64,000 bases of DNA, from positions 2,338 to 66,337 of the forward strand of contig CAYFNC010000005.1 of NCBI GenBank assembly GCA_964344345.1, in the 5' to 3' direction. The notes under the pieces were generated by a model, which was not told the DNA's origin, made no database searches, and saw nothing but the letters and a program-made list of their open reading frames with translations. The position numbers were made by a program, and so were the translations under genes. The stretch comes from an uncultured Hyphomicrobiales bacterium (GTDB lineage: Bacteria; Pseudomonadota; Alphaproteobacteria; Rhodospirillales; CAYFNC01). Below are positions 32,391-62,408 of the stretch, piece by piece (the stretch's first letter is position 1; each line of letters starts with the position of its first letter).

Positions 32391-34046
32391 ATGCGCAAAT
32401 CCTATCCCATATGGCTGCTGTTCTCCTTCCAGGGCCGGATCAATCGGGAGGTCTTCTGGGTGCGCGGCGTGCTGCCCATCCTGGCGGCGAGCATCCTGGT
32501 CTGGAGCATCCTGTTCAGCTTCGCGATGATGATCCCGTCGGGCCAGAAGATCGACCTCAGCCACCACCAGCCCCGCAACTTCGCCATGGATCACGGCAAG
32601 GACCACATGGTGGTCGGCGCGGGACGGGGCTCGGTGGTGATCCCAACGCCTTCCGAGGAGTCCGCCAAGGGCATGGAGCACACGGTGGACCTGGGCTACG
32701 CCCGGGGCGCCCTGCAGATTCAGCCGCCCGACCCGGAAAAGCCCGACGCGGTCCAAAAGGGCCTGTTCCGCTGGAAAGAGCACCCGATCGAGCGCATTCC
32801 CACCGAAGGCCCCAGCATCATCGTCGCGGTGATCGACATCATTTTGAAGATCACGTCCTTCGGGTTTTTCGTCGGCGTGACCTGGGCCCAGGTCGCCATC
32901 AACGCCAAGCGCCTGCACGATCTCGACAAGAAGGCCTGGTGGCAGCTGGTCCAACTCGTCCCGTTCCTCGGCACGTTCGCGCTTTTGGGATACCTCGGCT
33001 TCTTCAAGGGCACCCCCGACCACAACCGCTTCGGCCCCGATCCGCTCGGCCGCACTGGCGAGGAGGAATCCGAAGAGGAGGGGGAAGAAGAGGTATCCGA
33101 AGAGGAATCGGAGGACGAGGAGGAGGAAAACGAGGACGGCGAGGAGTCGGAGGAAACCGACGACGCGGAGGGCGACAAGCCGGACGAAGAGCCCGAGGCG
33201 GCGGCGGAGGACAAGGAGCCGGAGCCGGACAAAGAACCGGAAACCCCCGAGCCGCCTGAGCCCGAGCCGGACGAAGAACCGGAAGCGCCCGAGCCGCCCG
33301 CGCCCGAGCCGGACGAAGAACCGGAAACCCCCGAGCCGATCGAGGAGCCCGAAGCCCCAACCGAGCCGGAAGGGCCCGCCGAAGAGCCCATGGCGGCGGC
33401 CGAGCCGGAACCGGTCGCGGAGTCCGAGATCCCGGACGAACCCGAGGAGCCGGAGCCGCCCGAGGAGCCCGCCGCGCCCATGGCCGCCGAAGCCCCGGCC
33501 GAACCCGAGGAGCCCGAGCCGGCCCCGGAACCCATGGCCGCCGAGGCCCCCGACGAGCCGGAAGAGCCCGAACCCGCTCCGGCCGAGGAACCCCCTGAGC
33601 CCCAGGAAATCGGAAGCTTCACCATCCCGGCGGCGGCCAAGGCGGCCCTGGAGGCCAAGGAGGCCATGGCGCCCAAGCCGTCGGACGCGCCGGAAACGCC
33701 CAAGCTCGCCAGGACCCTGGACGTGCCAAAGCCGCCCAGGCCTTCGCCGGAGCCCATGGAGCCGCCCAAGGCGCCCGAACCGCCAAAGGAGGCCGCCGCG
33801 CCTCCCGCGCCGCCGAAGCAACCTCCGGCGCCGCCCAAGCCGACCAAGGACTTCGGGATTCCCGAGACCTACGCGCCGCCCGAACCGCCCAAGGAGCATG
33901 CGGCCCCGGCTCGGACCAAGCCGACCAAGGATTTCGCCATTCCAGAGTCCTACACGCCCCCCGCGCCCCCCAACGCGGTCGAGGCGCCGAAGGAACAGGC
34001 TCCCTCCAAGAAGGAATGGGCCATTCCAACCGTTCCGAAGGAATAA
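32391..34046 (+). CDS. DUF805-type inner-membrane protein with long acidic Pro/Glu-rich C-terminal tail
   Basis: N-terminal FSFQGRINREVFW and later AKRLHDLDKKAWWQL...NRFGPDP are the DUF805 (YhaH-like) signatures. The last ~330 aa are low-complexity PE/PEP repeats. Confidence 0.7.
   Translation: MRKSYPIWLLFSFQGRINREVFWVRGVLPILAASILVWSILFSFAMMIPSGQKIDLSHHQPRNFAMDHGKDHMVVGAGRGSVVIPTPSEESAKGMEHTVDLGYARGALQIQPPDPEKPDAVQKGLFRWKEHPIERIPTEGPSIIVAVIDIILKITSFGFFVGVTWAQVAINAKRLHDLDKKAWWQLVQLVPFLGTFALLGYLGFFKGTPDHNRFGPDPLGRTGEEESEEEGEEEVSEEESEDEEEENEDGEESEETDDAEGDKPDEEPEAAAEDKEPEPDKEPETPEPPEPEPDEEPEAPEPPAPEPDEEPETPEPIEEPEAPTEPEGPAEEPMAAAEPEPVAESEIPDEPEEPEPPEEPAAPMAAEAPAEPEEPEPAPEPMAAEAPDEPEEPEPAPAEEPPEPQEIGSFTIPAAAKAALEAKEAMAPKPSDAPETPKLARTLDVPKPPRPSPEPMEPPKAPEPPKEAAAPPAPPKQPPAPPKPTKDFGIPETYAPPEPPKEHAAPARTKPTKDFAIPESYTPPAPPNAVEAPKEQAPSKKEWAIPTVPKE
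33222..33347 (+). repeat. Three tandem 42-bp in-frame repeats (EPD(K/E)EPE(T/A)PEPP..P) inside the DUF805 gene tail
   Basis: Units start at 33222, 33264 and 33306 (gagccggac[a/g]aagaaccggaa...) with few substitutions. Confidence 0.8.
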
Positions 34047-34138: not shown

Positions 34139-36661
34139 ATGACTGGGCACGGCAACCGAGCAGCGGGCAAAATGACCGGGGGAAGTGTCGCACGGAGAAC
34201 CTTGTGGAAAATCGGGCTGCGCATCGCGCTTGTGATCGCCGCGATGACGGGCTTGGCGTATTACCACATCTACGCGACGACCACGGACGCCGCGCTGGAC
34301 ACCCTTGAGAAATATATAGCCGAGCGCGGCCACCGCGAACGCGAGAATTTCGTCCTTGCGAGCGAGCAGCACGCCCGCATTAAGGCGGAGCTGCTTCGGC
34401 GGCTCGAAGAGATGGGCGAGGCCGACCCCCGCGCAGAATTCGACGCATTGTTCGTCCGCTTTCCCGACGGGGTGATCCGGAACCGGCTGGACGGTTTCGA
34501 CGGAACCAGGCGGGCCTTCGCCTATATCGACAAGTCCATCACCCCCGACGCCGACCTGCGACGCCGCGTGCTCGCGTTCTATCACCTGTCCAATCAGTTC
34601 GGCCCCGCCTGGAACGAACGGTTCGAAAACCTATATTTTACAACGCCGGAAAACATCCTGGTCGGGTACTACCCCGACGTGCCCGACTACGCGCACACCT
34701 CCGGACCCGACCTGGACATGCGGACCGAGGAATGGGTGTGGATCGCCGACAAGAAACACAATCCCGAACGAAAGATGGCGTGGACCGGCGTGCTGTACGA
34801 CCCGCGCGCCGACCTTTGGATGATCTCCGGCGAGACCCCGGTGGACATCGACGGCAGGCATGTCGCGACCATCGGCCAGGACTTCACCCTGAACGACATC
34901 ATGGCCCGGTCCATCGACGACCGGCTGGACGGCGCCTACAACGTCATTTTCCGCAAGGATGGCCGCCTGATCGCCCATCCGGACATCATGGAGGACATCA
35001 AGACCAAGGGGGGAGGCCTCGATATCAAGGAATTCGGCGATAAGCATCTTGCCGATCTTTTCGAGACCGTCCTCTCGAAGCCCGAAGGCGAAGCCGTCAT
35101 CGAGCTCAAGGAATACGACCACTTTCTAGCGATCGCGCCCATCGAGGAGCCGGGATGGTTCTTCGTCACGGTCTATCCCAAGGCGCTGATCTCCAAGGTC
35201 GCTTTCGAAGCCGCGGGCATCGTGCTTCTTCTTGGCGCGTTGTCCTTGGCGATCGAAATCCTGATTTTCTTTTTCGTGATCCGCAAGGACGTGTCCCTTC
35301 CCTTGAACACCCTTGTCGCGGCGACGGACGCCATGGCGTCCGGCGATTACGCCGCGCGCGTAGAGCCGTTCCGGGATGACGAGATCGGCAGGCTTTCCCG
35401 TTCGTTCACCGCCATGCGCGACGCCATCATGACCAGCCACCTGCGCCTAAGCCGGACCGTGACCAAGCTGGAGGCGGCGCGCGACGAATTGGGGCGGTCC
35501 CGAGACGATTTGGAGCGCCGGGTCGCGGAACGGACCCGCGACCTCCGCAACCTGACCCAGGCGGTGGAGCAAAGCCCCCACATGGTCCTGATCACCGACC
35601 TCGACGCCAGGATCATATACGTGAACCGCCGATTCACGGACCTGACCGGCTACGCGCCTGCGGAGGTCATGGGAAAGAACCCGTCGATCCTGCAATCCGG
35701 CGACACCCCGGTTACGCTGTATTCGGAAATGTGGTCGGCCTTGATGTCCGATGGCCAATGGTTCGGCGAGATCAAGGACCGCTGCAAGGACGGACGCGCG
35801 TTCTGGGCCGCGCTCACGGTCTCGCGGGTCATGGACGAAGAGGGCGAGCCGACCCACTTCGTCGCCATCCACGAGGACATCACCGAACGAAAGCTCGCCG
35901 AGCAGGACATACGGATCGCCAAGGAGCAGGCTGAGACCGCGAGCCGGGCCAAGTCCGAGATGTTGGCGAACATGTCGCACGAGCTCCGCACGCCGCTCAA
36001 CGCCATCATCGGATACTCGGACAGCATTCTTCACGGAATTTTCGGCCCGATGGAGAACGAGAAATATCTGGAATACGTCCAGGACATCAATCATTCCGGC
36101 GCGCATCTCTTGGAGCTGATCAACGACGTCCTCGACGTGTCGGCCATCGAGGCCGGGAAGCTGGAGCTGGACGAGGAGGACGTGGACCTCGCCAAGCTCG
36201 TCGAATCCTGCAATCGCTTGATCGCGCCGAGGGCCGAGGCCGGTCGCGTCTCGATCGAAACCGACGTCCCGGACGGTGTCCCTTGGATTCACGCGGACAA
36301 GCGCAGGATAAAGCAGGCCCTGCTCAATCTCTTGTCCAACGCCGTCAAATTCACGCCCGAGAACGGATCGGTCGCGACGCGCGTGGCGCGGACGCCGGAC
36401 GGCGGTCTGGAAATCCGCGTCGAGGACACGGGCGTCGGAATGACGCCCCAGGAGCTGTCGAAGGCGATGGAGGAGTTCGGCCAGGCGGACTCGGGACTGG
36501 ACCGCAAATTCGAGGGCACCGGCCTCGGCCTTCCGCTGACGAAGGGGTTGATCGAACTTCACGGCGGCGAACTGACGATCGAAAGCCGCAAGAACGCCGG
36601 CACCACGGCCATCATCGCGCTTCCTAAGGAGCGCCTGACGCTCGTTTCATCGGTCGCCTGA
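34139..36661 (+). CDS. Sensor histidine kinase (Cache-like periplasmic domain, HAMP, PAS, HisKA, HATPase)
   Basis: Two TM segments flank a ~300-aa extracytoplasmic domain. PAS VEQSPHMVLITDLDARIIYVNRRFTDLTGY. H-box SHELRTPLNAIIGY. G2 box GTGLGLPLTKGLIELHGG. Confidence 0.9.
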   Translation: MTGHGNRAAGKMTGGSVARRTLWKIGLRIALVIAAMTGLAYYHIYATTTDAALDTLEKYIAERGHRERENFVLASEQHARIKAELLRRLEEMGEADPRAEFDALFVRFPDGVIRNRLDGFDGTRRAFAYIDKSITPDADLRRRVLAFYHLSNQFGPAWNERFENLYFTTPENILVGYYPDVPDYAHTSGPDLDMRTEEWVWIADKKHNPERKMAWTGVLYDPRADLWMISGETPVDIDGRHVATIGQDFTLNDIMARSIDDRLDGAYNVIFRKDGRLIAHPDIMEDIKTKGGGLDIKEFGDKHLADLFETVLSKPEGEAVIELKEYDHFLAIAPIEEPGWFFVTVYPKALISKVAFEAAGIVLLLGALSLAIEILIFFFVIRKDVSLPLNTLVAATDAMASGDYAARVEPFRDDEIGRLSRSFTAMRDAIMTSHLRLSRTVTKLEAARDELGRSRDDLERRVAERTRDLRNLTQAVEQSPHMVLITDLDARIIYVNRRFTDLTGYAPAEVMGKNPSILQSGDTPVTLYSEMWSALMSDGQWFGEIKDRCKDGRAFWAALTVSRVMDEEGEPTHFVAIHEDITERKLAEQDIRIAKEQAETASRAKSEMLANMSHELRTPLNAIIGYSDSILHGIFGPMENEKYLEYVQDINHSGAHLLELINDVLDVSAIEAGKLELDEEDVDLAKLVESCNRLIAPRAEAGRVSIETDVPDGVPWIHADKRRIKQALLNLLSNAVKFTPENGSVATRVARTPDGGLEIRVEDTGVGMTPQELSKAMEEFGQADSGLDRKFEGTGLGLPLTKGLIELHGGELTIESRKNAGTTAIIALPKERLTLVSSVA

Positions 36662-36667
36662 CTCGCG

Positions 36668-37936
36668 TCACTCCGAAACCCGGTTCCGCCCTCCCTCCTT
36701 GGCGCGATAGAGCGCCTGGTCGGCGGACTTGATCACGGTTTCGGGGACGGCTTCGCTGTCGTTCGGGGCGCCGACGCCGATGGAGATGGTGACGCTCACG
36801 GTCTCGCCGCCGCCCTCCCCGCGCGTTTCGGCGGGGTCCTGGGGGTCGTCCGGGCGGTTGTCGCCCCGGACGTGGAATTGGGCGTGTTCGACCGAGGCGC
36901 GAAGGGCCTCCAGGTGCGGCCAAGCCTCGTGGACGTCGCGGCCTGGGAACAGCACGGTGAATTCCTCGCCGCCGTAGCGGTACGCGCGCCCGCCGCCCGA
37001 AACCCGCTCGAGCCTGCCCGCCACCATGCGCAGCACCTCGTCGCCCACGTCGTGGCCCCAGGTGTCGTTGAAGCGCTTGAAGTGGTCCACGTCGGTCATG
37101 GCGATGACGTAGCGGCTGCCGAGCTTCTTTAGATCCGCCATCAAGGCGCGGCGCCCGGGAAGCCCGGTCAGCTCGTCGCGAAACGCCATGCGATAGGAAT
37201 CCTGCATCACCGCCGCGATCACGATCACGCCCGCGGTCAGGAAGAACACCGACGGCATCACGCCCTGGCCCGCGGAATGGAGCGCGAGGCCCGACGCCGC
37301 CAGCGCGCCGAACATGCCCGCGTCCATGGGCTGGCGGGTCACGGCGGCGCGAATGAACAGCATGCCGAGCGCCATGGGAAAGGTGAACAGCGCCGGTTGC
37401 GGCAGCCAGGTCCAGGCGTCGAAGACCTTGGGGAAGGCGCGCGCGTGCAACCAATCCGCCACCGTCTGCTGCATGGCCGCCGCGCTGTCCTGCGCCATCA
37501 GCCCGCCGGCTCCGGTTGCGACGAAGGCGACAAGCAGGACCTGGACCGCGATCGCGCCGATGTTGAACAGCCCGGCGTCGGTGAAGAAGCCCCGGTCCTC
37601 CTGCAAGGCCAGGAACGCCATGTTGACCGGCAGGAACACGGCGTAGAAGGCGTAGGCCACCTGGCCCATCGGCCCCCGATCCATGCCAGCGCCCATCAGC
37701 GACGCCGCGATCCAGTGGCCGAGCGCCACCAGGACCAGGGCGAAGGCGGCGCGCGAGCGGCTGAACCGGGCGCACAGCGCGACGCCGACCACGGCGGCGA
37801 GGTAGGCCCCATGCCCGATGGCGTCGCCCACATGCCACGGCGCCGCGTCCAGCGCGCCCTGCAGCAAGGCGGCGGAGGCGAGCAACGCCAACGGCATCCA
37901 CACGACGCCGAACGTCTTGGCCACGGCTTGGCTCAT
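36668..37936 (-). CDS. Diguanylate cyclase (GGDEF) with N-terminal polytopic membrane domain
   Basis: ATG at 37936 (MSQAVAKTFGVVWMPLALL). About 8 hydrophobic helices. C-terminal RYGGEEFTVLF active-site motif. The 687-aa track ORF is an over-extension antisense to the next gene. Confidence 0.9.
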   Translation of the reverse strand: MSQAVAKTFGVVWMPLALLASAALLQGALDAAPWHVGDAIGHGAYLAAVVGVALCARFSRSRAAFALVLVALGHWIAASLMGAGMDRGPMGQVAYAFYAVFLPVNMAFLALQEDRGFFTDAGLFNIGAIAVQVLLVAFVATGAGGLMAQDSAAAMQQTVADWLHARAFPKVFDAWTWLPQPALFTFPMALGMLFIRAAVTRQPMDAGMFGALAASGLALHSAGQGVMPSVFFLTAGVIVIAAVMQDSYRMAFRDELTGLPGRRALMADLKKLGSRYVIAMTDVDHFKRFNDTWGHDVGDEVLRMVAGRLERVSGGGRAYRYGGEEFTVLFPGRDVHEAWPHLEALRASVEHAQFHVRGDNRPDDPQDPAETRGEGGGETVSVTISIGVGAPNDSEAVPETVIKSADQALYRAKEGGRNRVSE

Positions 37937-38047
37937 GGTCGGACTCCCCCGATGAAACCACTTCGGGCCATTAAACGGGGTTTCGATAAAGGATCGGTTA
38001 ATGGAGCGGGGGTTTCGGGCCGCCGCCCCATCCTGTACCCTGCCCCC

Positions 38048-38797
38048 ATGTGCACCGTGGTCATCCTTCACCGCCCCGGCCACGACTGGCCGGTTGTTCT
38101 GGGCGCCAACCGGGACGAGATGGTCGATCGGCCGTGGCGTCCGCCCGCGCGCCATTGGCCCGACCGGCCCGAGGTGGCGGCCGGAATGGACGAGCTCGCG
38201 GGCGGGACCTGGATGGGCATGAACGACATGGGCGTGGCGGCGGCGATCCTCAACCGCGAGGGCACCCTGGGCCCGGCCGAGGGGAAACGGAGCCGGGGGG
38301 AGCTGCCGCTCGAAGCCCTCGACCACGCCGAGGCCGCCGCCGCCGTCGAGGCCTTGGAGCATCTGAACCCCGACGCCTACCGCCCCTTCAACATGGTGGT
38401 GGCGGACCGGCGGGAGGTCTTTTGGCTGCGCAACACCGGGGACGCGGTCGAGGGGTTCCAGGTCGAGGCGGGGCTCAACATGCTCACCGCCCACGACCTG
38501 AACGACGTCGAGAACTCGCCTCGCCAGAAGCTGCATCTGCCCCGTTTCCGCGCCGCGTCCCATCCGGACGTGGACAAGGGCGACTGGGCGGGCTGGGAGG
38601 CCCTGCTGGCGTCCCGGGACTTCGAGGGCGATTCGGGCCGGGCCGAGGCCATGTGCGTGGTCACAGACACCGGGTTCTGCACCACGTCGTCGTCGCTGAT
38701 CGCGTTGCCGTCGATGGAGCGCCCGGCCCAACCGCCCGCGTGGCTGTTCTGCGCGGGACGGCCGGGCGAGGCCGAATGGGCGCCGGTCGAGCGTTGA
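38048..38797 (+). CDS. NRDE-family (TANGO2/DUF833-like) protein
   Basis: MCTVVILHRPGHDWPVVLGANRDE is the N-terminal Cys plus NRDE motif of this family. 249 aa. Confidence 0.75.
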   Translation: MCTVVILHRPGHDWPVVLGANRDEMVDRPWRPPARHWPDRPEVAAGMDELAGGTWMGMNDMGVAAAILNREGTLGPAEGKRSRGELPLEALDHAEAAAAVEALEHLNPDAYRPFNMVVADRREVFWLRNTGDAVEGFQVEAGLNMLTAHDLNDVENSPRQKLHLPRFRAASHPDVDKGDWAGWEALLASRDFEGDSGRAEAMCVVTDTGFCTTSSSLIALPSMERPAQPPAWLFCAGRPGEAEWAPVER

Positions 38798-42652: not shown

Positions 42653-43519
42653 ATGCGCGTTCTTTTCATTGGAGTGGCGGCGGCGCTCGCCTTCGCCGGG
42701 GCGACGGCCGAGGCCGACCAGACCATCACCGCGGCCAAGGCCTACAAGGCCCCGGTCATCGACGGCGACGGGTCCGACGAGGCCTGGGCGCGGGCCAAGG
42801 CCTTCACGGTCCAGGACGCGGTGGCGGACATTCCCTTGACGTTGAAGGCGGTCCATGTGGACGGCAGCGTCTATGTCCTGACGTCGTTCGCCGACAAGAC
42901 CGAAAGCCGCGACCACAAGACCATGGTCTGGGACAAGACCAAGAACGCCTACGTCACCGGCCCGGCGCGCGAGGACTCCTTCGTCCTGAAATGGAACATG
43001 GAGCCCCACCAGGTCGACCTCACGCTCAGTTCCGACGCGCCCTACAAGGCCGACATCTGGTACTGGAAGTCGCACCGCACCGACCACGCCGGGTACGCCG
43101 ACGACAAGCATCAGGTCTACAACCAGTTCTCGGTTCCCAAGGCCAAGAAGACGTTGTCCAAGAAGGGGCGGGTGTTCTACCTGCTGCGCGCGGGCGACGA
43201 CGGGAAATCCGCCTACGGCGCCGCGTTGATCGGCGGCTTCCAGGGCGACAAGATCGGCAAGTTCAAGCTGCGCGCGCCCACGGGCAGCCGCGCCGACGTG
43301 CGGGCCAAGGGCGCGTGGAAGGACGGCGTCTGGACCGTCGAGTTCGGCCGCAAGCTGGACACCGGGCATGCGGACGACATCCAGTTCGTTCCCGGGAAAT
43401 CCTACCAGTTCGGGGTTTCGCGCTATGAAATCGCCGGGCGCAAAAGGGACGACAGCATCGACGAACCCCTGTTCGGAAGCGGAGAAATCGGGGAAACCCT
43501 GTTCCTGGAGTTCGAATGA
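42653..43519 (+). CDS. Periplasmic DOMON/EB_dh-like (putative haem-binding) protein
   Basis: SD AAGGGGAG. Signal peptide MRVLFIGVAAALAFAGATAEA. AYKAPVIDGDGSDEAWARAKAF and DIWYWKSHRTDHAGYADD resemble the ethylbenzene-dehydrogenase gamma/DOMON family. Its stop overlaps the kinase start (ATGA). Confidence 0.5.
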   Translation: MRVLFIGVAAALAFAGATAEADQTITAAKAYKAPVIDGDGSDEAWARAKAFTVQDAVADIPLTLKAVHVDGSVYVLTSFADKTESRDHKTMVWDKTKNAYVTGPAREDSFVLKWNMEPHQVDLTLSSDAPYKADIWYWKSHRTDHAGYADDKHQVYNQFSVPKAKKTLSKKGRVFYLLRAGDDGKSAYGAALIGGFQGDKIGKFKLRAPTGSRADVRAKGAWKDGVWTVEFGRKLDTGHADDIQFVPGKSYQFGVSRYEIAGRKRDDSIDEPLFGSGEIGETLFLEFE

Positions 43520-46500
43520 ACCCTTTCGGCGCCATTCGCTATCACGTCGCCGAGAAACTGGGCATCGCCCTGTTCCTCGGCGTGTTCGCGGCGCTCGCCG
43601 TTTCGGCCTACCACTACACCCGCTTTTCCGCCGACGCCATCCGGACCGTGATCCAGGTTCATGCGCCCGCGCACGAAAAGATGTTCGTCATCGATAATCT
43701 TATCAGTTCCGCGCATGGCGCGTTCCACGACTTCAAAAGCTCCGAGGCGGTCACCGAAAAGGACATCCTGGCCATCATCGCCTCCATCAAGACCCTGTCG
43801 GCCCAGATCGACCGCGACATGGCGAACGCCGATCCTTACGCCGAGGACAGCCCGACCCCGGAGCTTTCCATCGCCCTGGACGGCTTTTTCCGGGAACTGG
43901 TCAACGACGCCAAGGAGGACCCGGCCGACGACACCGGCATCATGCTGATCGACGAAATCCGGTCGGCCTCGTCGAGAATCAGAACCGAATACTTCGCGCT
44001 GCACAACAAGCCGGACACGCCGGAATCCGTGAAAACGACGATCGCGCGGATTTCCGGCTCCATCTCCATGTTCGATTTGCTGTTCGAGAACTATGTCGGC
44101 CTTCGGCATTTCGACATCGATATCGTCCTGGATTCCCTCGATCGCGCGATCGCCATGTTGCGCGACTTGGACGAGGAATTCGCGCGCGAGGAAATCAACG
44201 ACCCCGAATACGCCAGGGAATTCGACAATCTGATCCAGTCCCTGGCCCGGTTCAAGGCGGGGATCGTGTTGTTCAACACCGAGCTGGCCCAGGAAGGCTC
44301 GGTCACCGACACCCTGATCGAGATCGGCGACGCCACCCACGAGGAATGGGTCGCGTCGGTGGACGCCCTGCATCACGTCCATAACCACATCAACGCCTAT
44401 ATCGAGCGATGCAACGCCGAGGTGACCGAGACCAGCAGCACCCGCCAGAAACTGTTCCTGCTCCTGTTCATTATCGGCGCCATCGTCGCCGGATTCGGCT
44501 CCATGGTGTTGCGGCGCATGATCACGGCGCGCGTCGGCGCCATCACCGAGGGCGCCCACAAGATGGCCGATGGCGAGCTGGGATACCGCATCGCTCCCGG
44601 CCCCAGGGACGTTTTCGGCCAGCTTGCGGGCGACTTCAACGCCATGGCCGACTCGCTCGCCGAGAAGCACATGGAATCGAAGGCGCGCATGGACGAGCTC
44701 GACAAGGTCAACCGCGAGGTCGTCGAGGCCCGCGACAAGCTCGACGTCCGCGTGCGCGAACGCACGGACGAGCTGAACAAGGCCAAGGTGGAGGCGGAGG
44801 AAAGCGAAGAGAATCTGCTCGGCATGATCACCGAAAGCCCCATCGCCATCGTCATCGCCGACCACGAGGGCCGCAACATTTTCTGGAACAAGAAGTTCGA
44901 GGAGTTCGGACACTGGGGCGAGGACGGCGAGGGCCACCGCGTGTTCGGCATGTCCTTCGAACGGGCCGAGGAAAAGGAGCTTCTGACCCACCTGATGGCC
45001 GAGGAAGCCGGCTTCGACGACGTGGAGTTCAAGCTGACCGCCGCCGACGGCTCCGACGTGTGGGCGCTGGTCAGCCTGCAGAAGATCTGGTTCGACCGCC
45101 AGCCCTGCTCCCTGATCTGGGTCTACGACATCACCGAGCGCATCCGCAACGAACGCGAACTGGCCGAGGCCCGCCGGGCGGCGGAAGAGGCGAGCACGGC
45201 GAAGTCGGATTTCCTTGCGAACATGAGCCACGAGATCCGCACGCCGATGAACGCGATCACGGGCATGAACCACCTGCTGAAAAAGACCAAGCTGGACCGC
45301 CAGCAGCGGGACTACGTGGAGAAGGCGGGCAACGCCACCCATTCGCTGTTGTCGATCATCAACAACATCCTGGATCTGTCCAAGATCGAGGCGGGCAAGG
45401 TCGAGATGGAGGCGATCGACTTCAAGCTGTCGGACGTCCTGCGCCGCCTGGCCGACGTCCTGGGGGGCGTGCTGAGCAAGAAGGACATCGAGTTCGCCAT
45501 CGTCTCGCCCCTGGACATCCCGGATAACCTTGTGGGCGACCCGACGCGCCTGGGCCAGATCCTGCTCAACTTCGCCAACAACGCGGTCAAGTTCACCGAG
45601 ACGGGCTCGGTGGTTGTGGCGGTGGAGGACGCGGGCCGTGGCGAGGACACGGTCTCCTTGCGCTTCGCCATCCGGGACACCGGCATCGGCATGACGGCGG
45701 AGCAACGGGACAAGCTGTTCCAGCCGTTCACCCAGGCGGACACGTCGACGACGCGGAAGTTCGGGGGCACGGGCCTGGGGCTGACCATCTCGAAGCAGTT
45801 CGTGGAGCTGATGGGGGGCCAAGTGACGGTCCTGAGCGAGCCCGGGGAGGGCTCGGAGTTCTCGTTCACGGTGGGCTTTCCGCTGTCGGCGGAGGTCGCG
45901 GAGGCGGCGGAGGGTCTGGAGGCGCTCCGGGGCAAGCGGGCGCTGGTGGTGGACGAATTCGAGACCGGTCGCGAGGCGCTGGTGGAGGCGCTTTCGGCCT
46001 GGGGGATGATGGCGGCGGCGGCGGAGACGCGGGACGACGCCGAGGCGGCGCTGGGCGCCATGCCGTTCGACGCGGTTCTGATGGACTGGCGGACGGCTGG
46101 GGGGAAAGTGTTCGACGGGGTCCCGGCCTTCGTTCTGGTGTCGCCGCACGCGCTGGAGGGCGACCGGGACGCCATCGACGCGCTGTCTCCGGCGGGTCTT
46201 CTGGTCAAGCCGGTGATCCCGGATGTTCTTCTGGGCTCCCTGCTGCACGGGCTGGAGCTTGTGGACGACCGCCGTGGCGACGGGCGCGACGAGGGCGACG
46301 CGGCGCGTCTGAAGGACTGGAAGGTCCTGGTGGTGGACGACAACGAGGTGAACCAGGAGATCGCGCGCGCGATCCTGGAGGCCGAGGGCGCCATGGTTGT
46401 GGTGGCCGAGAACGGGCAGGACGCGGTGGACGCGGTGGACATGCGGCCCGGGCTGTTCGACGTGGTTCTGATGGACATCCAGATGCCGGTGATGGATGGG

Positions 46501-46680
46501 CTCGAAGCGACGCGGCGCATCCGCGCCAACCCGGACCACGAAGGCCTACCGGTTCTGGCCATGTCGGCCAACGCCATGGACCACCAGCGCCAGGAAAGCC
46601 TGGACGCGGGCATGAACGACCACATCGCCAAACCCATCGACGTCGACCAGGCGGTCGAGACCATGCGGAAATGGGTGTGA
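43516..46680 (+). CDS. Hybrid sensor histidine kinase/response regulator 1 (2 TM, HAMP, PAS, HisKA, HATPase, pseudo-REC, REC)
   Basis: H-box SHEIRTPMNAITG. G1 DTGIGM. G2 GGTGLGLTISKQFVELMGG. REC VLVVDDNEVNQE...LMDIQMPVMDG...AKP. 1054 aa. Confidence 0.9.
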   Translation: MNPFGAIRYHVAEKLGIALFLGVFAALAVSAYHYTRFSADAIRTVIQVHAPAHEKMFVIDNLISSAHGAFHDFKSSEAVTEKDILAIIASIKTLSAQIDRDMANADPYAEDSPTPELSIALDGFFRELVNDAKEDPADDTGIMLIDEIRSASSRIRTEYFALHNKPDTPESVKTTIARISGSISMFDLLFENYVGLRHFDIDIVLDSLDRAIAMLRDLDEEFAREEINDPEYAREFDNLIQSLARFKAGIVLFNTELAQEGSVTDTLIEIGDATHEEWVASVDALHHVHNHINAYIERCNAEVTETSSTRQKLFLLLFIIGAIVAGFGSMVLRRMITARVGAITEGAHKMADGELGYRIAPGPRDVFGQLAGDFNAMADSLAEKHMESKARMDELDKVNREVVEARDKLDVRVRERTDELNKAKVEAEESEENLLGMITESPIAIVIADHEGRNIFWNKKFEEFGHWGEDGEGHRVFGMSFERAEEKELLTHLMAEEAGFDDVEFKLTAADGSDVWALVSLQKIWFDRQPCSLIWVYDITERIRNERELAEARRAAEEASTAKSDFLANMSHEIRTPMNAITGMNHLLKKTKLDRQQRDYVEKAGNATHSLLSIINNILDLSKIEAGKVEMEAIDFKLSDVLRRLADVLGGVLSKKDIEFAIVSPLDIPDNLVGDPTRLGQILLNFANNAVKFTETGSVVVAVEDAGRGEDTVSLRFAIRDTGIGMTAEQRDKLFQPFTQADTSTTRKFGGTGLGLTISKQFVELMGGQVTVLSEPGEGSEFSFTVGFPLSAEVAEAAEGLEALRGKRALVVDEFETGREALVEALSAWGMMAAAAETRDDAEAALGAMPFDAVLMDWRTAGGKVFDGVPAFVLVSPHALEGDRDAIDALSPAGLLVKPVIPDVLLGSLLHGLELVDDRRGDGRDEGDAARLKDWKVLVVDDNEVNQEIARAILEAEGAMVVVAENGQDAVDAVDMRPGLFDVVLMDIQMPVMDGLEATRRIRANPDHEGLPVLAMSANAMDHQRQESLDAGMNDHIAKPIDVDQAVETMRKWV

Positions 46681-46681
46681 G
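45220..46681 (+). repeat. 1,462-bp perfect direct repeat, copy A (3' cassette of kinase 1)
   Basis: Compared line by line with 49602-51063 (offset 4382). No mismatch seen. Identity ends one base after the TGA. Confidence 0.95.
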
Positions 46682-46755
46682 ACTGGAGCGGGAAACGCTC
46701 CGCTGATTTCAAAGTTCTTGATGACCAAGAACGAAATTAAGGAAGGGAATAGGAT

Positions 46756-47877
46756 ATGCGGGTAACTATTCTGCGCGTTTTCGCGGCTTTGGCGCTCGTT
46801 TGCTTCTGGGCCGGGGAATTGGCGGCGGCCGACGCCAAGAGCCGTTTGCTGGTCGTCAGCAGCTATCATCGCGAATACCTGTGGTCCCAGGACACGAACC
46901 GGGGCGTGACCGCCGCGTTGATCGAGTTCGGCTATCTGGACGATCAAGGGCAGGCCGACGCCTTCACCCGGGACGACATGGTCGAGAGCTCCCGCGCCGT
47001 CGCGCGCAAGATGTGGATGGACACCAAACGCAAAACCACGAAGGCCGACATCAACGCGGCGGTCGGGCGAGTCTTGCAGGCGGCGGAGGAGTTCAAGCCC
47101 GACGTCATCCTTCTCGGCGACGACAACGCGGCCAACTACGTGGGCAACCAGTTCATCGACACCGAAACCCCGGTGGTGTTCTGGGGCGTCAACGGGGTTC
47201 CGTTGAAATACGGCCTGCTGGATTCCCTGGAAAAACCGGGACACAACGTCACGGGCGTCTATCAGGCGGGCTATCTGATGGAGGGCGTGCAGTTCCTGAA
47301 AAAGCTGCTGCCGGACGTCAAGACCATGGGCGTGCTCTCCGACGACTCGCCCACCGGCCGGTCCAAGGCCAAGGAGCTGACGCTGATGATGGAGAAGGGC
47401 GCCCTGCCCATCGCGGTCACGGAGGTGGTCATCACCGGCTCGGAAGCCGAATGGAAAGCGAAGGCGCTGGAGCTGGACAAGAAGGTCGACGCCTTCTTCA
47501 TCGTCAACCACAACACGTTGAAGGACGCCGCTGGGAAGGCCGTCGACCCCATGCGGGTCGGCTCGTGGTTCCTGAACACCATCCGCAAGCCCTCCGTCGC
47601 TCACGAGCGGCAATTCGTGACCGAGGGCTTCCTCTGCGCCGTGGACGATTCCGGCTTCAAGCAAGGATTCGAGGCGGTCCGCATCGCCGACCGCATCCTC
47701 GCCAAGGGCGAGAAGCCCGAGGCGATTTCCGTCTACGCGCCCAGCCGGGGCAAGTTCCTGGTCAACCGGGTCCGGGCGGAGATGCTGGGCCTGGACGCGA
47801 TCGCGAAGGGCCATGAACTGGTCGAGGAGTATGTCGAGAAGTCCGTCGCGCTGGAGAAATACCCGCGGGCGCAATAA
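46756..47877 (+). CDS. Periplasmic ABC-type substrate-binding-like protein (no cognate permease/ATPase nearby)
   Basis: Signal peptide MRVTILRVFAALALVCFWAGELAAA. LLVVSSYHREYLWSQDTNRGV and the periplasmic-binding-fold pattern of the ABC_sub_bind type often found next to sensor kinases. Confidence 0.6.
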   Translation: MRVTILRVFAALALVCFWAGELAAADAKSRLLVVSSYHREYLWSQDTNRGVTAALIEFGYLDDQGQADAFTRDDMVESSRAVARKMWMDTKRKTTKADINAAVGRVLQAAEEFKPDVILLGDDNAANYVGNQFIDTETPVVFWGVNGVPLKYGLLDSLEKPGHNVTGVYQAGYLMEGVQFLKKLLPDVKTMGVLSDDSPTGRSKAKELTLMMEKGALPIAVTEVVITGSEAEWKAKALELDKKVDAFFIVNHNTLKDAAGKAVDPMRVGSWFLNTIRKPSVAHERQFVTEGFLCAVDDSGFKQGFEAVRIADRILAKGEKPEAISVYAPSRGKFLVNRVRAEMLGLDAIAKGHELVEEYVEKSVALEKYPRAQ

Positions 47878-47915
47878 GCCTCGGGCCAATGTGACAACGA
47901 CTTCGAGGGAAATCC

Positions 47916-50900
47916 GTGCGCGAGGCGCTAGAACATAACGCGGACGCGAACGACGTCAGAAAACCGACGCTGTTCGTCCGTTTGCTGCGCTGGTTCGCGC
48001 TGACCGGCGTCGGGGTCGCGTTGATCTCGGGCCTCGCGCATCATCTTTATCTGAACCAAGTCATCTTCAACGCCACCCAGGAACGGCTCGCGGGCACGCT
48101 GAAATCCATGCGGCTCTTTTTCGAAGAGAGCTATTCCAAACACGTGTCCGGCGACCTATCCATGATGGCCCGCGCGCCCAGCATCGGGCGGCTGATCGTT
48201 TCCGGCAGCGAGGAAAGGTTCATCGCGCGGGGCGATGTGGAGCGGTTCTTCATCAACATCACCGGAAACCACAAAGACGAATTTTATTTGAAAATCGGCT
48301 TCCATGGCCGAAAGGGCGACCTGTTGGCGGCGGTCAAGGGCCGCAAACGGACCCGCCGCAAGGGAAATATCCTGACCCTTTCCGACGCAACCAGCCTCCA
48401 ACGGGAAAGCGCGAAACTGTTCCAGGACCTCAAGAAGGCGGCGCCCGGCGCCCCCGTCATTTGCTCCATCGTCCGAAACGCGTCGGGCGGCGACGTGCTT
48501 CTGGCCGGCATCGGGGTCGCCGATCCCGACGTCGGCGGCTTCGGCGGCGCGATCATCGTCGAGGTCGCGCTCGCTCTCTATCTAGATTATCTCGCCAACA
48601 CGGTTCCGGCCGAGGAAAGAACCTGGGGCCGGGGGTTCGGGGACGGCGACCTTCATGGGTTGTCCGTCAAGCTTTCGACGGGAGACGGAAAGGCCGAGAT
48701 GTTGCGCGCCGGCGACGTCGGCGATCACGCCGATTTGCCGTTCTGGTTCGAACCCATGCTCCCGACCCAGGACTTGCTCGCCATCGACGGGCCGATCGGC
48801 GCGGGAATGAACGGCGCGCCCTTGATGCAGGTTGCGTTGGCCATGCCGCGCGCCGATTACGCCGTCGTCATCCAGGGCTCGGTCATGCGGTCTTTTATGT
48901 TGGCCGGGGTGATCGCGATGATCTCCGTGATCATTTCGCTGTTCGCGTCCCGCGCCATCGCGCGCCCGGTCGCGGAAATCAGCCGGGCGAGCCGGGACGT
49001 CGCCCAGGGAAACCTCGACGCCCGCGCCGTCACGAAAGCCTCGGGCGAGTTGGGCCTTCTCGCCGAGAATTTCAACCGCATGGTCGGGGAGCTGCAATCC
49101 CAAACCGAGGAGTTGCAGGCCCAAACCGAAAGCCTGTCCGACGCCATGTGGAAAAGCCAACAGGCCAAGGAAACGGCGGAGGAAAGCGAAAAGAACCTTC
49201 TGGAGCTGATCACGGAAAGCCCGATCGCCATCGCCATCGCGGACTACAGCGGGCGTAACATCTTCTGGAACAAGGAGTTCGAAAAGCTCGGCCATTGGGT
49301 CAGGACGGACGACGGGCATCGGGACTTCCGGCTTTCGTTCGAGCGCGCCGAGGAAGAGGAGCTTCTGGGCCATCTGATGGAGGGCGAGGGCGGCTTCATC
49401 AATGTGGAGTTCAAGCTGACCGCCGCCGACGACTCCGACGCCTGGGCGCTGATCAGCCTGCAGAAAATCTTTTTCGACCGCCAGCCCTGCTCCCTGATCT
49501 GGGTCTACGACGCGACCGAGCGCGTGCTGCAGGAGCGCGCGCTCGCCGAGGCGCGCCGGGCGGCGGAAGAGGCGAGCACGGCGAAGTCGGATTTCCTCGC
49601 CAACATGAGCCACGAGATCCGCACGCCGATGAACGCGATCACGGGCATGAACCACCTGCTGAAAAAGACCAAGCTGGACCGCCAGCAGCGGGACTACGTG
49701 GAGAAGGCGGGCAACGCCACCCATTCGCTGTTGTCGATCATCAACAACATCCTGGATCTGTCCAAGATCGAGGCGGGCAAGGTCGAGATGGAGGCGATCG
49801 ACTTCAAGCTGTCGGACGTCCTGCGCCGCCTGGCCGACGTCCTGGGGGGCGTGCTGAGCAAGAAGGACATCGAGTTCGCCATCGTCTCGCCCCTGGACAT
49901 CCCGGATAACCTTGTGGGCGACCCGACGCGCCTGGGCCAGATCCTGCTCAACTTCGCCAACAACGCGGTCAAGTTCACCGAGACGGGCTCGGTGGTTGTG
50001 GCGGTGGAGGACGCGGGCCGTGGCGAGGACACGGTCTCCTTGCGCTTCGCCATCCGGGACACCGGCATCGGCATGACGGCGGAGCAACGGGACAAGCTGT
50101 TCCAGCCGTTCACCCAGGCGGACACGTCGACGACGCGGAAGTTCGGGGGCACGGGCCTGGGGCTGACCATCTCGAAGCAGTTCGTGGAGCTGATGGGGGG
50201 CCAAGTGACGGTCCTGAGCGAGCCCGGGGAGGGCTCGGAGTTCTCGTTCACGGTGGGCTTTCCGCTGTCGGCGGAGGTCGCGGAGGCGGCGGAGGGTCTG
50301 GAGGCGCTCCGGGGCAAGCGGGCGCTGGTGGTGGACGAATTCGAGACCGGTCGCGAGGCGCTGGTGGAGGCGCTTTCGGCCTGGGGGATGATGGCGGCGG
50401 CGGCGGAGACGCGGGACGACGCCGAGGCGGCGCTGGGCGCCATGCCGTTCGACGCGGTTCTGATGGACTGGCGGACGGCTGGGGGGAAAGTGTTCGACGG
50501 GGTCCCGGCCTTCGTTCTGGTGTCGCCGCACGCGCTGGAGGGCGACCGGGACGCCATCGACGCGCTGTCTCCGGCGGGTCTTCTGGTCAAGCCGGTGATC
50601 CCGGATGTTCTTCTGGGCTCCCTGCTGCACGGGCTGGAGCTTGTGGACGACCGCCGTGGCGACGGGCGCGACGAGGGCGACGCGGCGCGTCTGAAGGACT
50701 GGAAGGTCCTGGTGGTGGACGACAACGAGGTGAACCAGGAGATCGCGCGCGCGATCCTGGAGGCCGAGGGCGCCATGGTTGTGGTGGCCGAGAACGGGCA
50801 GGACGCGGTGGACGCGGTGGACATGCGGCCCGGGCTGTTCGACGTGGTTCTGATGGACATCCAGATGCCGGTGATGGATGGGCTCGAAGCGACGCGGCGC

Positions 50901-51062
50901 ATCCGCGCCAACCCGGACCACGAAGGCCTACCGGTTCTGGCCATGTCGGCCAACGCCATGGACCACCAGCGCCAGGAAAGCCTGGACGCGGGCATGAACG
51001 ACCACATCGCCAAACCCATCGACGTCGACCAGGCGGTCGAGACCATGCGGAAATGGGTGTGA
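47916..51062 (+). CDS. Hybrid sensor histidine kinase/response regulator 2 (same architecture as kinase 1, different sensor)
   Basis: GTG start (uncertain). TM1 FALTGVGVALISGLAHHLYL and TM2 FMLAGVIAMISVIISLFA. HAMP, PAS and a transmitter identical to kinase 1. Confidence 0.9.
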   Translation: MREALEHNADANDVRKPTLFVRLLRWFALTGVGVALISGLAHHLYLNQVIFNATQERLAGTLKSMRLFFEESYSKHVSGDLSMMARAPSIGRLIVSGSEERFIARGDVERFFINITGNHKDEFYLKIGFHGRKGDLLAAVKGRKRTRRKGNILTLSDATSLQRESAKLFQDLKKAAPGAPVICSIVRNASGGDVLLAGIGVADPDVGGFGGAIIVEVALALYLDYLANTVPAEERTWGRGFGDGDLHGLSVKLSTGDGKAEMLRAGDVGDHADLPFWFEPMLPTQDLLAIDGPIGAGMNGAPLMQVALAMPRADYAVVIQGSVMRSFMLAGVIAMISVIISLFASRAIARPVAEISRASRDVAQGNLDARAVTKASGELGLLAENFNRMVGELQSQTEELQAQTESLSDAMWKSQQAKETAEESEKNLLELITESPIAIAIADYSGRNIFWNKEFEKLGHWVRTDDGHRDFRLSFERAEEEELLGHLMEGEGGFINVEFKLTAADDSDAWALISLQKIFFDRQPCSLIWVYDATERVLQERALAEARRAAEEASTAKSDFLANMSHEIRTPMNAITGMNHLLKKTKLDRQQRDYVEKAGNATHSLLSIINNILDLSKIEAGKVEMEAIDFKLSDVLRRLADVLGGVLSKKDIEFAIVSPLDIPDNLVGDPTRLGQILLNFANNAVKFTETGSVVVAVEDAGRGEDTVSLRFAIRDTGIGMTAEQRDKLFQPFTQADTSTTRKFGGTGLGLTISKQFVELMGGQVTVLSEPGEGSEFSFTVGFPLSAEVAEAAEGLEALRGKRALVVDEFETGREALVEALSAWGMMAAAAETRDDAEAALGAMPFDAVLMDWRTAGGKVFDGVPAFVLVSPHALEGDRDAIDALSPAGLLVKPVIPDVLLGSLLHGLELVDDRRGDGRDEGDAARLKDWKVLVVDDNEVNQEIARAILEAEGAMVVVAENGQDAVDAVDMRPGLFDVVLMDIQMPVMDGLEATRRIRANPDHEGLPVLAMSANAMDHQRQESLDAGMNDHIAKPIDVDQAVETMRKWV

Positions 51063-51063
51063 G
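49602..51063 (+). repeat. 1,462-bp perfect direct repeat, copy B (3' cassette of kinase 2)
   Basis: Identical to 45220-46681. The flanks differ after position +1 past the stop codon. Confidence 0.95.
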
Positions 51064-60549: not shown

Positions 60550-60578
60550 CCGGGTCAAGCCCGGCCATGACGAAAGAA
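60550..60578 (+). repeat. 29-bp REP-family copy (ccgggtcaagcccggccatgacgaaagaa), left of arsM
   Basis: Identical to 62363-62391. Confidence 0.7.
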
Positions 60579-60835
60579 ACGGCGAGCCCCATTATACAGC
60601 CGGCCAAGGACTTGACCGGCTCCAATCCCTCAATCGCCGGGCGCATTCCTCCGGAATGCTTGGCTTTCGGCGCATAATCGCCGGCCCGCTTCGCAGGCTG
60701 CCAAGCGATCGCAAGTCATAGCTCGCGCCGCTTGGTATTACGCCAAGCCTCCCCAGGCTCCATGCGCGCCTTGACATCGCGCGCCGATCTCCTATCTCTT
60801 CCGGAATTGTCCCAACCCTCGACAAGGAGCCGCCC

Positions 60836-61691: not shown

Positions 61692-62408
61692 ATGCCCCGC
61701 GACACGGTTCTGTTCGACATCAACGAAACCGTTCTGGACCTTTCGTCACTGAGGCCCGGGTTCGAGGCGGCGTTCGGCGACGCGGCGGCGGCGTCCACGT
61801 GGTTCGCCATGCTATTGCATTCGTCGACCGTCTGCGCCTTGACCGGGGTTGGGACCGGGTTCGCCGATCTGGCAGCCGCCACGCTGGACGCCTTGGCCGC
61901 GCGCCGGGGCGCGGCGGTGTCCCCGGATCAAAAGGACGGAATCCTCGCCGGTTTCGCAAGCCTTGCGCCCCACGCGGACGTCAAGCCCGGCCTGGCGCGC
62001 CTGCGGGCGGGAGGATACCGGACGGTCGCGTTCTCCAATTCCTCGCGAAAGCTGGTGGCGAGCCAGATCGCCAACGCCGGGCTCGAAGATCATTTCGACG
62101 AGGTTCTTTCGGTCGAGGAAACGGGAAGCTTCAAGCCCGACGCCAAGGTCTATCGCTTCGGCGCGGAGCGCCTTGGGCGGTACATCGAGGATTTGCGCCT
62201 CGTCGCCACCCATGACTGGGACACCCACGGCGCCATGTCTGCGGGCATGCGCGCGGCCTACATCGACCGTTCTGGCGCGCCGTACCATCCGCTCTACCTG
62301 CGCCCGGGCGTTTACGCCTCGGACATGGGCGAGGTCGCGGAGCGGATCATCGCCGTCGATAGCCGGGTCAAGCCCGGCCATGACGAAAGAATGAGCGAAT
62401 CCCTTTAA
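61692..62408 (+). CDS. HAD-superfamily hydrolase (haloacid dehalogenase type II-like)
   Basis: Motif I LFDINETVLDL, motif II VAFSNSS, and K...HDWD motifs. The last ~15 codons (SRVKPGHDERMSESL) are encoded by a REP-family element. Confidence 0.7.
   Translation: MPRDTVLFDINETVLDLSSLRPGFEAAFGDAAAASTWFAMLLHSSTVCALTGVGTGFADLAAATLDALAARRGAAVSPDQKDGILAGFASLAPHADVKPGLARLRAGGYRTVAFSNSSRKLVASQIANAGLEDHFDEVLSVEETGSFKPDAKVYRFGAERLGRYIEDLRLVATHDWDTHGAMSAGMRAAYIDRSGAPYHPLYLRPGVYASDMGEVAERIIAVDSRVKPGHDERMSESL
62363..62391 (+). repeat. 29-bp REP-family copy, right of the arsM-HAD pair (inside the HAD 3' end)
   Basis: Identical to 60550-60578. Confidence 0.7.

Follow-up and report, generated by a model that had tools for sequence, protein, structure and literature searches.

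Two neighbouring hybrid histidine kinases with different sensors carry a nucleotide-identical output cassette in an uncultured Hyphomicrobiales bacterium

We analysed a stretch of 64,000 nucleotides (the window) from an uncultured Hyphomicrobiales bacterium (GenBank assembly GCA_964344345.1, contig CAYFNC010000005.1, positions 2,338 to 66,337 of the forward strand), in which two genes on the forward strand encode hybrid histidine kinases, HK1 (43516..46680; 1,054 aa) and HK2 (47916..51062; 1,048 aa). Each of them follows a gene for a secreted protein on the same strand. The gene upstream of HK1 encodes an EB_dh-like protein of 288 aa (PF09459; 42653..43519; Pfam E=3.6e-20) with a signal-peptide-like N-terminus, and its stop codon overlaps the start codon of HK1. 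The gene upstream of HK2 encodes a binding protein of 373 aa from the PF04392 (ABC_sub_bind) family (46756..47877; Pfam) and ends 38 bp before the kinase. As assigned with Pfam, HK1 consists of a first transmembrane helix, an all-helical periplasmic sensor, a second transmembrane helix, HAMP, a coiled coil, PAS, HisKA, HATPase_c, a degenerate receiver (REC) domain and a REC domain, the hydrophobic segments spanning residues 10-35 and 309-336. In HK2, a mixed alpha/beta periplasmic sensor leads through HAMP and PAS to the transmitter/receiver cassette that HK1 also carries. Both proteins carry the features of HisKA-type hybrid kinases, namely the H-box histidine, HATPase_c and a fused receiver (Pfam, alignment).

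Direct comparison of the two copies of this cassette showed that positions 45220..46681 and 49602..51063 (forward strand; offset 4,382 bp) match at each of their 1,462 bp, with 0 mismatches, and that the very next base differs on both sides. The 5' limit of the tract falls at codon N569 of HK1, three codons ahead of the phospho-accepting H572 (45229-45231), and the 3' limit lies one base beyond the TGA stop codon (46678-46680). According to Pfam and alignment, the tract encodes HisKA, HATPase_c, a degenerate receiver-like segment that Pfam missed and a canonical REC. In the first copy it thus covers DHp from N569, CA, the degenerate REC (~45913-46230) and the REC with D987 (46474-46476), then the stop codon and one base; in the second copy the corresponding residues are H566 (49611-49613) and D981 (50856-50858). 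The canonical REC keeps the conserved Asp, Ser and Lys when aligned with relatives, and the degenerate segment aligns with their first receiver domain, being ~20 residues shorter here. At the protein level HK1 and HK2 are identical from about HK1 residue 548 to the C-terminus, that is, over the whole of DHp, CA and both receiver-like domains. The first-pass annotation of this DNA had claimed the 1,462-bp identity, its start a few codons before the H-box, its end one base past the TGA and its content of HisKA, HATPase, a degenerate receiver and a true REC. Each of these points was confirmed in the assembled sequence, where no scattered differences were found.

To describe the divergence outside the tract, synonymous and non-synonymous differences were counted per codon by the Nei-Gojobori method, pS being the proportion of synonymous sites that differ. 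Homology between HK1 and HK2 starts near 44780, at the beginning of the PAS domain. Upstream of PAS, ungapped identity at the offset of the tract is at background (~30%), and BLASTP of HK1 against HK2 found nothing significant before HK1 residue 314, the second transmembrane helix and HAMP being only weakly similar. The parts that encode PAS and the PAS-to-DHp linker (44797..45219 in HK1 and its counterpart 49179..49601 in HK2, forward strand) show a mosaic homology, with 81 differences, of which ~35 are synonymous and 46 non-synonymous. Identity is 74% in segment 44797-45021 (pS 0.55), rises to 93.5% in 45022-45129 (7 of 108 positions differ; pS 0.08), falls to 67% in 45130-45171 (14 of 42 positions; pS 0.56, pN 0.25) and reaches 96% in 45172-45219 (2 of 48 positions, both synonymous; pS 0.16), before the tract itself, where segment 45220-46677 is 100% identical with 0 differences at 365.3 synonymous sites (pS 0). 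Heterogeneity of pS over the four upstream segments was significant (chi-square P=3e-4) on only 93 upstream synonymous sites, and the maximum chi-square breakpoint was 45172. With the neighbouring pS of 0.27-0.38, finding 0 of 365 synonymous sites changed has P <1e-49 (about 1e-50 to 1e-76). The 42-bp island at 45130-45171 (49512-49553 in HK2), situated 48 bp 5' of the tract, encodes the signalling-helix linker between PAS and DHp, the peptides being ITERIRNEREL in HK1 and ATERVLQERAL in HK2; it may have impeded conversion, or selection may keep it specific to each paralogue. On the 3' side no gradient of divergence was observed, identity being 100% up to one base past the stop codon and random beyond.

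The upstream pattern suggests that several events left a mosaic in which three or more age classes can be told apart. Earlier statements that the PAS regions are homologous with dozens of substitutions, many of them non-synonymous, that the sensor regions are barely alignable, that the flanks after the 3' end are unrelated and that the tract has zero synonymous differences all agree with these counts. The step from diverged to identical sequence that had also been described stood in so far as pS drops to 0 at the tract; it is not a single sharp step, since pS runs 0.55, 0.08, 0.56, 0.16 and 0 along the genes.

The window derives from a short-read metagenome bin (project PRJEB17505, runs ERR2281802 and ERR2281803), and it was compared with Logan assemblies and with MEGAHIT assemblies (k=127) made separately for the two runs. 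The MEGAHIT k127 and Logan contigs never cross the repeat, their ends lying k or k-1 bases inside it (127 or 30). Contigs L086 and L087 end at 45346 (45220+126), L001 and L002 start at 46555 (46681-126) and L004 starts at 50937 (51063-126); the Logan contigs L003 and L005 begin inside a copy, 29 bases short of its end, L005 at 51034. All four repeat junctions are present in independent assemblies of the two runs, so that a false repeat is not indicated. The breaks of independent contigs at both ends of the repeat show that it exists in the reads and that each boundary of the tract is a genuine branch point there. At its start, contig L001 (46555-49275) carries the terminal 127 bases of the cassette, and it stops within the PAS-coding region of HK2, from which the bin contig continues into the second cassette copy. 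The cassette flanks the segment with the binding-protein gene and the HK2 sensor on both sides, and there must therefore be at least two cassettes in one molecule. Independent contigs show that the first and last 127 bp of the repeat are shared; the identity of its interior (45347-46554) rests on the bin assembly, in which the assembler probably walked the repeat as one graph edge twice. Bubble merging could mask a few interior differences, and the contrast with the flanks is too large to be affected by this. As one contig carries both copies, at a distance of 4,382 bp, donor and recipient belong to the same genome, with the caveat that this is a metagenome bin. A single-nucleotide polymorphism (SNP) was seen at 48897 (A>C) in L002, L086 departs from the window sequence at two positions, and contigs over the HK2 sensor stop early, at 48914, 48937 and 49275. 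These SNPs and early contig ends indicate strain-level variation in the sampled population.

We considered the possibility that the identity is a product of assembly, one de Bruijn edge having been walked twice with its bubbles merged or, in the extreme case, no second copy existing at all. The 143-kb contig of the NCBI bin is the only record in which the two kinases appear at full length, the ENA and Logan assemblies breaking at the repeat, and this, together with the population SNPs in L002 and L086, would fit such an artefact, as would the lack of any record, on look-up, of the 486-aa product expected from a lone repeat contig. Yet the independent assemblies of the two runs contain all four junctions and break off inside the repeat at a depth of exactly k bases, the cassette on both sides of the binding-protein and HK2 sensor segment forces at least two copies per molecule, and the terminal 127 bp at each repeat end are demonstrably shared. 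Furthermore, bubble merging hides a few per cent of divergence at most, compared with the 20-45% found next door, and the qualitative step survives. We hold an assembly artefact to be quite improbable. Strong purifying selection or codon bias might instead have kept the cassette identical without any recombination, the cassette being the catalytic core and a third-position GC content (GC3) of ~0.9 constraining codon choice. In that case adjacent segments of the same genes, which share the same codon bias, stand in the way: 0 of 365 synonymous sites differ in the cassette, against a pS of 0.27-0.55 next to it. Moreover, the base past the stop codon is identical too, and the closest other relatives of the cassette that were found are only ~40-46% identical in protein sequence. 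This proposal, to which we give practically no credence, is effectively refuted by the count of synonymous sites.

A single recent copy-and-paste by break repair, initiated through homology in the PAS/linker region and completed by a non-homologous join just past the stop codon, would account for the abruptness of the 3' boundary while the 5' side is graded; and since relatives of HK1 run on into an Hpt domain, the gene end could be a truncation fixed by one such event. However, the 5' mosaic, with stretches of pS 0.08 and 0.16 between segments of pS 0.55, requires more than one event, the 3' joint shows neither microhomology nor a scar, and an already homogenised homologous 3' end explains the data equally well. 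Such an origin thus seems unlikely to us. Neither purifying selection nor a single duplication is adequate because pS falls from 0.55 to 0 within one continuous homologous frame. The drop of synonymous differences to 0 and the mosaic of tract ages support what the first-pass annotation had proposed, and recent gene conversion or concerted evolution appears to be the best explanation of the tract.

According to this explanation by gene conversion, an old duplication and fusion would have put one output half behind both sensors, the oldest segments now being near synonymous saturation (pS 0.55). RecA-type recombination between the direct repeats would then have overwritten one copy repeatedly, through gene conversion or cycles of unequal crossing-over. 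Earlier events would have extended upstream to about 45022, and the latest would have covered at least the stretch from 45220 to the end of the homology, leaving 0 differences in 1,462 bp. The 42-bp linker island would mark either a stop to strand exchange, as a block of mismatches, or selection for paralogue-specific residues, and the abrupt 3' limit would best be read as the end of the segment that was originally duplicated. The setting is one of chromosomal housekeeping genes (carB, greA, trpB-like, accD-like), with no mobile-element genes in a Pfam scan. Homogenisation may be a mere by-product of having two long direct repeats 2.9 kb apart. Such repeats should delete the 4.4-kb unit at appreciable frequency; both genes have nevertheless been retained, and this suggests that both are useful. 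No comparable cassette repeat was found in any of 84 other kinase loci (1.45 Mb), the few repeats detected there all lying outside kinase genes.

Several observations weigh against the account of conversion and shared output. As the bin is built from short reads, the identity of the interior may be assembler-made, and the missing record of the 486-aa product counts here as well. The abrupt 3' end, which has no gradient and breaks off one base past the stop codon, is not predicted by purely internal conversion. No relative above 46% identity was found with which the usual comparison of paralogues and orthologues might be made. Finally, the window contains no Hpt or regulator partner, and the proposal of a single output is drawn from the identity of the cassettes. 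Still, taken together, the anatomy, the recombination history and the shared output form an explanation that we regard as likely.

The closest relatives were sought in several ways. A word-index search with HK1 gave 42-46% identity at best; the same search missed HK2, which is present in the collection and shares about 500 identical residues with the query. With the HK2 sensor the word-index search returned no matches, not even HK2 itself. That neither search listed a close paralogue is weak evidence. A scan of a genome collection with the PAS-plus-cassette protein gave none above 46% among the matches listed, which were mostly generic kinase motifs and did not include the source genome, and metagenome scans with conserved PAS peptides and with a degenerate DNA pattern for QPCSLIWVYD gave no matches. 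Compared with HK1-family kinases, the cassette is ~40-43% identical over its full length, and compared with one binding-protein-linked kinase it is 32% identical over part of it. The difference hints weakly that the HK1 lineage may be the original home of the cassette; no direction of transfer is called on it.

The input halves of the two kinases are of different kinds. The sensor module of HK1 (residues 1-335; 43516..44520, forward strand) belongs to a rare, unnamed family of helical sensors. It has no Pfam match, and its AlphaFold model is all-helical (pLDDT 80); a Foldseek comparison of the model with the PDB gave generic helical matches alone, none of them significant (best E=0.03). Only 30 relatives were found among 1.84 billion representative proteins, in each case at the N-terminus; nine of them were scanned with Pfam, and all nine were histidine kinases, hybrid in eight cases. 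An EB_dh-like gene of 288 aa lies directly upstream of the kinase in both relatives whose context was examined: in L090 it immediately precedes the HK1-family kinase and is 52% identical to the gene in the window, and in L091 a PF09459 gene of 288 aa occupies the same position. The EB_dh-like protein is therefore presumed to be a periplasmic co-sensor of HK1. The pair formed by an EB_dh-like gene and a helical-sensor kinase, for which no name was found, spans 42653-44520 in the window, 5126-9447 in L090 and 4125-8585 in L091.

For HK2, residues 13-397 (sensor and HAMP) are homologous to kinases that follow binding-protein genes in L088 (E=1e-38) and L089 (E=2e-43), the C-terminal halves of which are unlike that of HK2. 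A single-sequence model of the HK2 sensor had a pLDDT of 36, too low for use. The PF04392 protein has 809 homologues, the top 120 being 55-63% identical, and the nearest solved structures, 3lft and 3lkv, are both uncharacterised. In all three distinct genomic neighbourhoods examined, the PF04392 gene directly precedes a HAMP-containing kinase. In systems such as LuxP-LuxQ and TorT-TorS, a periplasmic binding protein encoded beside the kinase delivers the signal. The HK2 pair fits this conserved adjacency of LuxPQ- and TorTS-style systems, and the PF04392 protein is presumed to be the periplasmic co-sensor of HK2. In this PF04392 subfamily, which occurs in very different bacteria, a sensor kinase follows in place of transporter genes, and the outputs of the kinases vary by organism; the pair spans 46756-48950 in the window, 10001-14125 in L088 and 10001-14426 in L089.

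Judged from these comparisons, the inputs of HK1 and HK2 are distinct modules of partner plus sensor, each recurring in unrelated bacteria, and the boundary after HAMP is the place where output halves get swapped in evolution. The input part of the earlier two-input proposal is strengthened, each sensor recurring elsewhere with its own upstream partner gene.

No Hpt domain was found in HK1 or HK2 (Pfam), in the six-frame translation of the window (phmmer, three queries) or in the Pfam-scanned genes, and the 64-kb window yielded no further receiver domain. The phmmer and Pfam scans being empty, the earlier claim that the downstream Hpt protein or response regulator is not in the window held, and an Hpt partner may lie elsewhere in the genome. 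Most relatives in the HK1 family continue past REC with a linker and a C-terminal Hpt (…RWIPP…), and both kinases of the window stop at the end of the second receiver (…RKWV, then the stop codon at 46678-46680 and 51060-51062). The cassette thus looks like a truncated version from which Hpt has been lost. No difference in partner specificity is expected because the DHp, CA and REC surfaces are identical. It is reasonable to infer that HK1 and HK2 would share a downstream Hpt protein or regulator, encoded at an unlinked site, to which both hand their phosphate: a design of two inputs and one output. More speculatively, HK1 and HK2 may form heterodimers.

Full-length alignment was obtained between the cassette and Caulobacter ShkA (PDB 6QRJ; DHp-CA-pseudo-receiver Rec1-Rec2; E=1.9e-69, HMMER). 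As in ShkA, there is an acidic motif in the linker between Rec1 and Rec2, VDDRR (46264-46272; HK1 D917-R919), near the position of the DDR tether of that protein. Unlike HK1 and HK2, ShkA has no membrane sensor. The residues of ShkA that contact cyclic di-GMP (c-di-GMP) are R324, Y338, R344, S347 and Q351 (PMC6969517). Control by c-di-GMP in the manner of ShkA was raised as a candidate by this architecture and by a nearby GGDEF gene. The equivalents of R324 and I327 are present in the cassette; Y338, R344, S347 and Q351 are replaced by L, I, V and S. Going by these substitutions, activation of HK1 and HK2 by c-di-GMP as in ShkA is unlikely.

In Vibrio, several hybrid kinases without Hpt, LuxN, LuxQ and CqsS, converge on one phosphotransfer protein, LuxU. 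The transmitters of such converging kinases of the Lux and Tor type have diverged, whereas those of HK1 and HK2 are identical. Gene conversion between bacterial paralogues is known from tufA/tufB and from rRNA operons. Non-reciprocal recombination between paralogues also occurs among sabA, sabB and hopQ of Helicobacter pylori (PMC9973278). The sab genes resemble the present case in that part of one paralogue was made identical to another, with mosaic boundaries. The sab, tuf and rRNA examples concern adhesins or housekeeping genes, whereas here only the output half of signalling proteins with unrelated input halves is affected. The closest functional analogue is provided by Tlp2, Tlp3 and Tlp4 of Campylobacter jejuni, paralogous membrane sensors of a single genome with differing inputs and one downstream machinery, in which the periplasmic sensing domains are ~30% identical and the cytoplasmic signalling domains are identical (PMC9769880). 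Those proteins are methyl-accepting chemotaxis proteins, and adjacency of their genes is not described there. What HK1 and HK2 have in common is a phosphorelay transmitter with its receiver, and a separate gene for a periplasmic partner accompanies each sensor. Alm et al. (2006) described lineage-specific expansion of kinases, domain shuffling and orphan kinases without an adjacent regulator (PMC1630713). Their duplicates are similar in being recent kinase cores with new upstream sensory domains, and orphan; they differ in having taken new functional roles, and the term 'gene conversion' is absent from that article.

The remainder of the window contains some further features. A diguanylate cyclase (GGDEF) gene lies 5 kb upstream of HK1 (36668-38731, reverse strand), and a third sensor kinase lies 7 kb upstream (34139-36661, forward strand); the latter has a dCache-HAMP-PAS-HisKA-HATPase architecture with no receiver, and the lineage of its core differs from that of the cassette. 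The gene for a DUF805 membrane protein (32391-34046) contains tandem 42-nt and 81-nt repeats at 33216-33986, encoding an acidic, proline-rich sequence (EPEPD(K/E)EPE…). Two asparagine-synthase-like paralogues (7964-9847 and 14291-16138) share short patches of ~72% nucleotide identity, with no sign of conversion, and their surroundings, with Wzy-like, MBOAT, glycosyltransferase and heparinase-like genes, resemble a surface-polysaccharide cluster. A 45-nt sequence (CCGGGTCAAGCCCGGCCATGACGAAAGAA…) at 60550-60594 recurs with 87% identity 1.8 kb away, at 62363-62407, this second copy forming the last part of a called gene (61692-62408). Opposite the two kinases, very long open reading frames (43423-46539 and 48582-50921, reverse strand; 1,038 and 779 aa) lack a third-position GC signal and were discarded as artefacts of high GC content. 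No Rfam families or tRNAs were found in the window.

Within the library that could be searched, no report of homogenised kinase cassettes or of concerted evolution in kinases was found. The locus adds a clear-cut case to a known process, one little noted in the kinase family; it is not a new kind of system. It also holds a caution for work with metagenome bins, the feature sitting where short-read assemblers break or collapse.

In the two-component field, duplicated kinases are taken to diverge at their specificity residues, which insulates the pathways from one another. The identity of HK1 and HK2 might itself be upheld by selection, in favour of heterodimers, a shared Hpt and a joint response, the linker island being shielded as the part that tunes the coupling of each sensor. 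We think this unlikely. If it were true, the pair would form an exception, found in nature, to the rule by which kinases, once duplicated, have to diverge so as not to cross-talk. The pair offers a minimal natural test of signal integration, of heterodimerisation and of recombination set against insulation.

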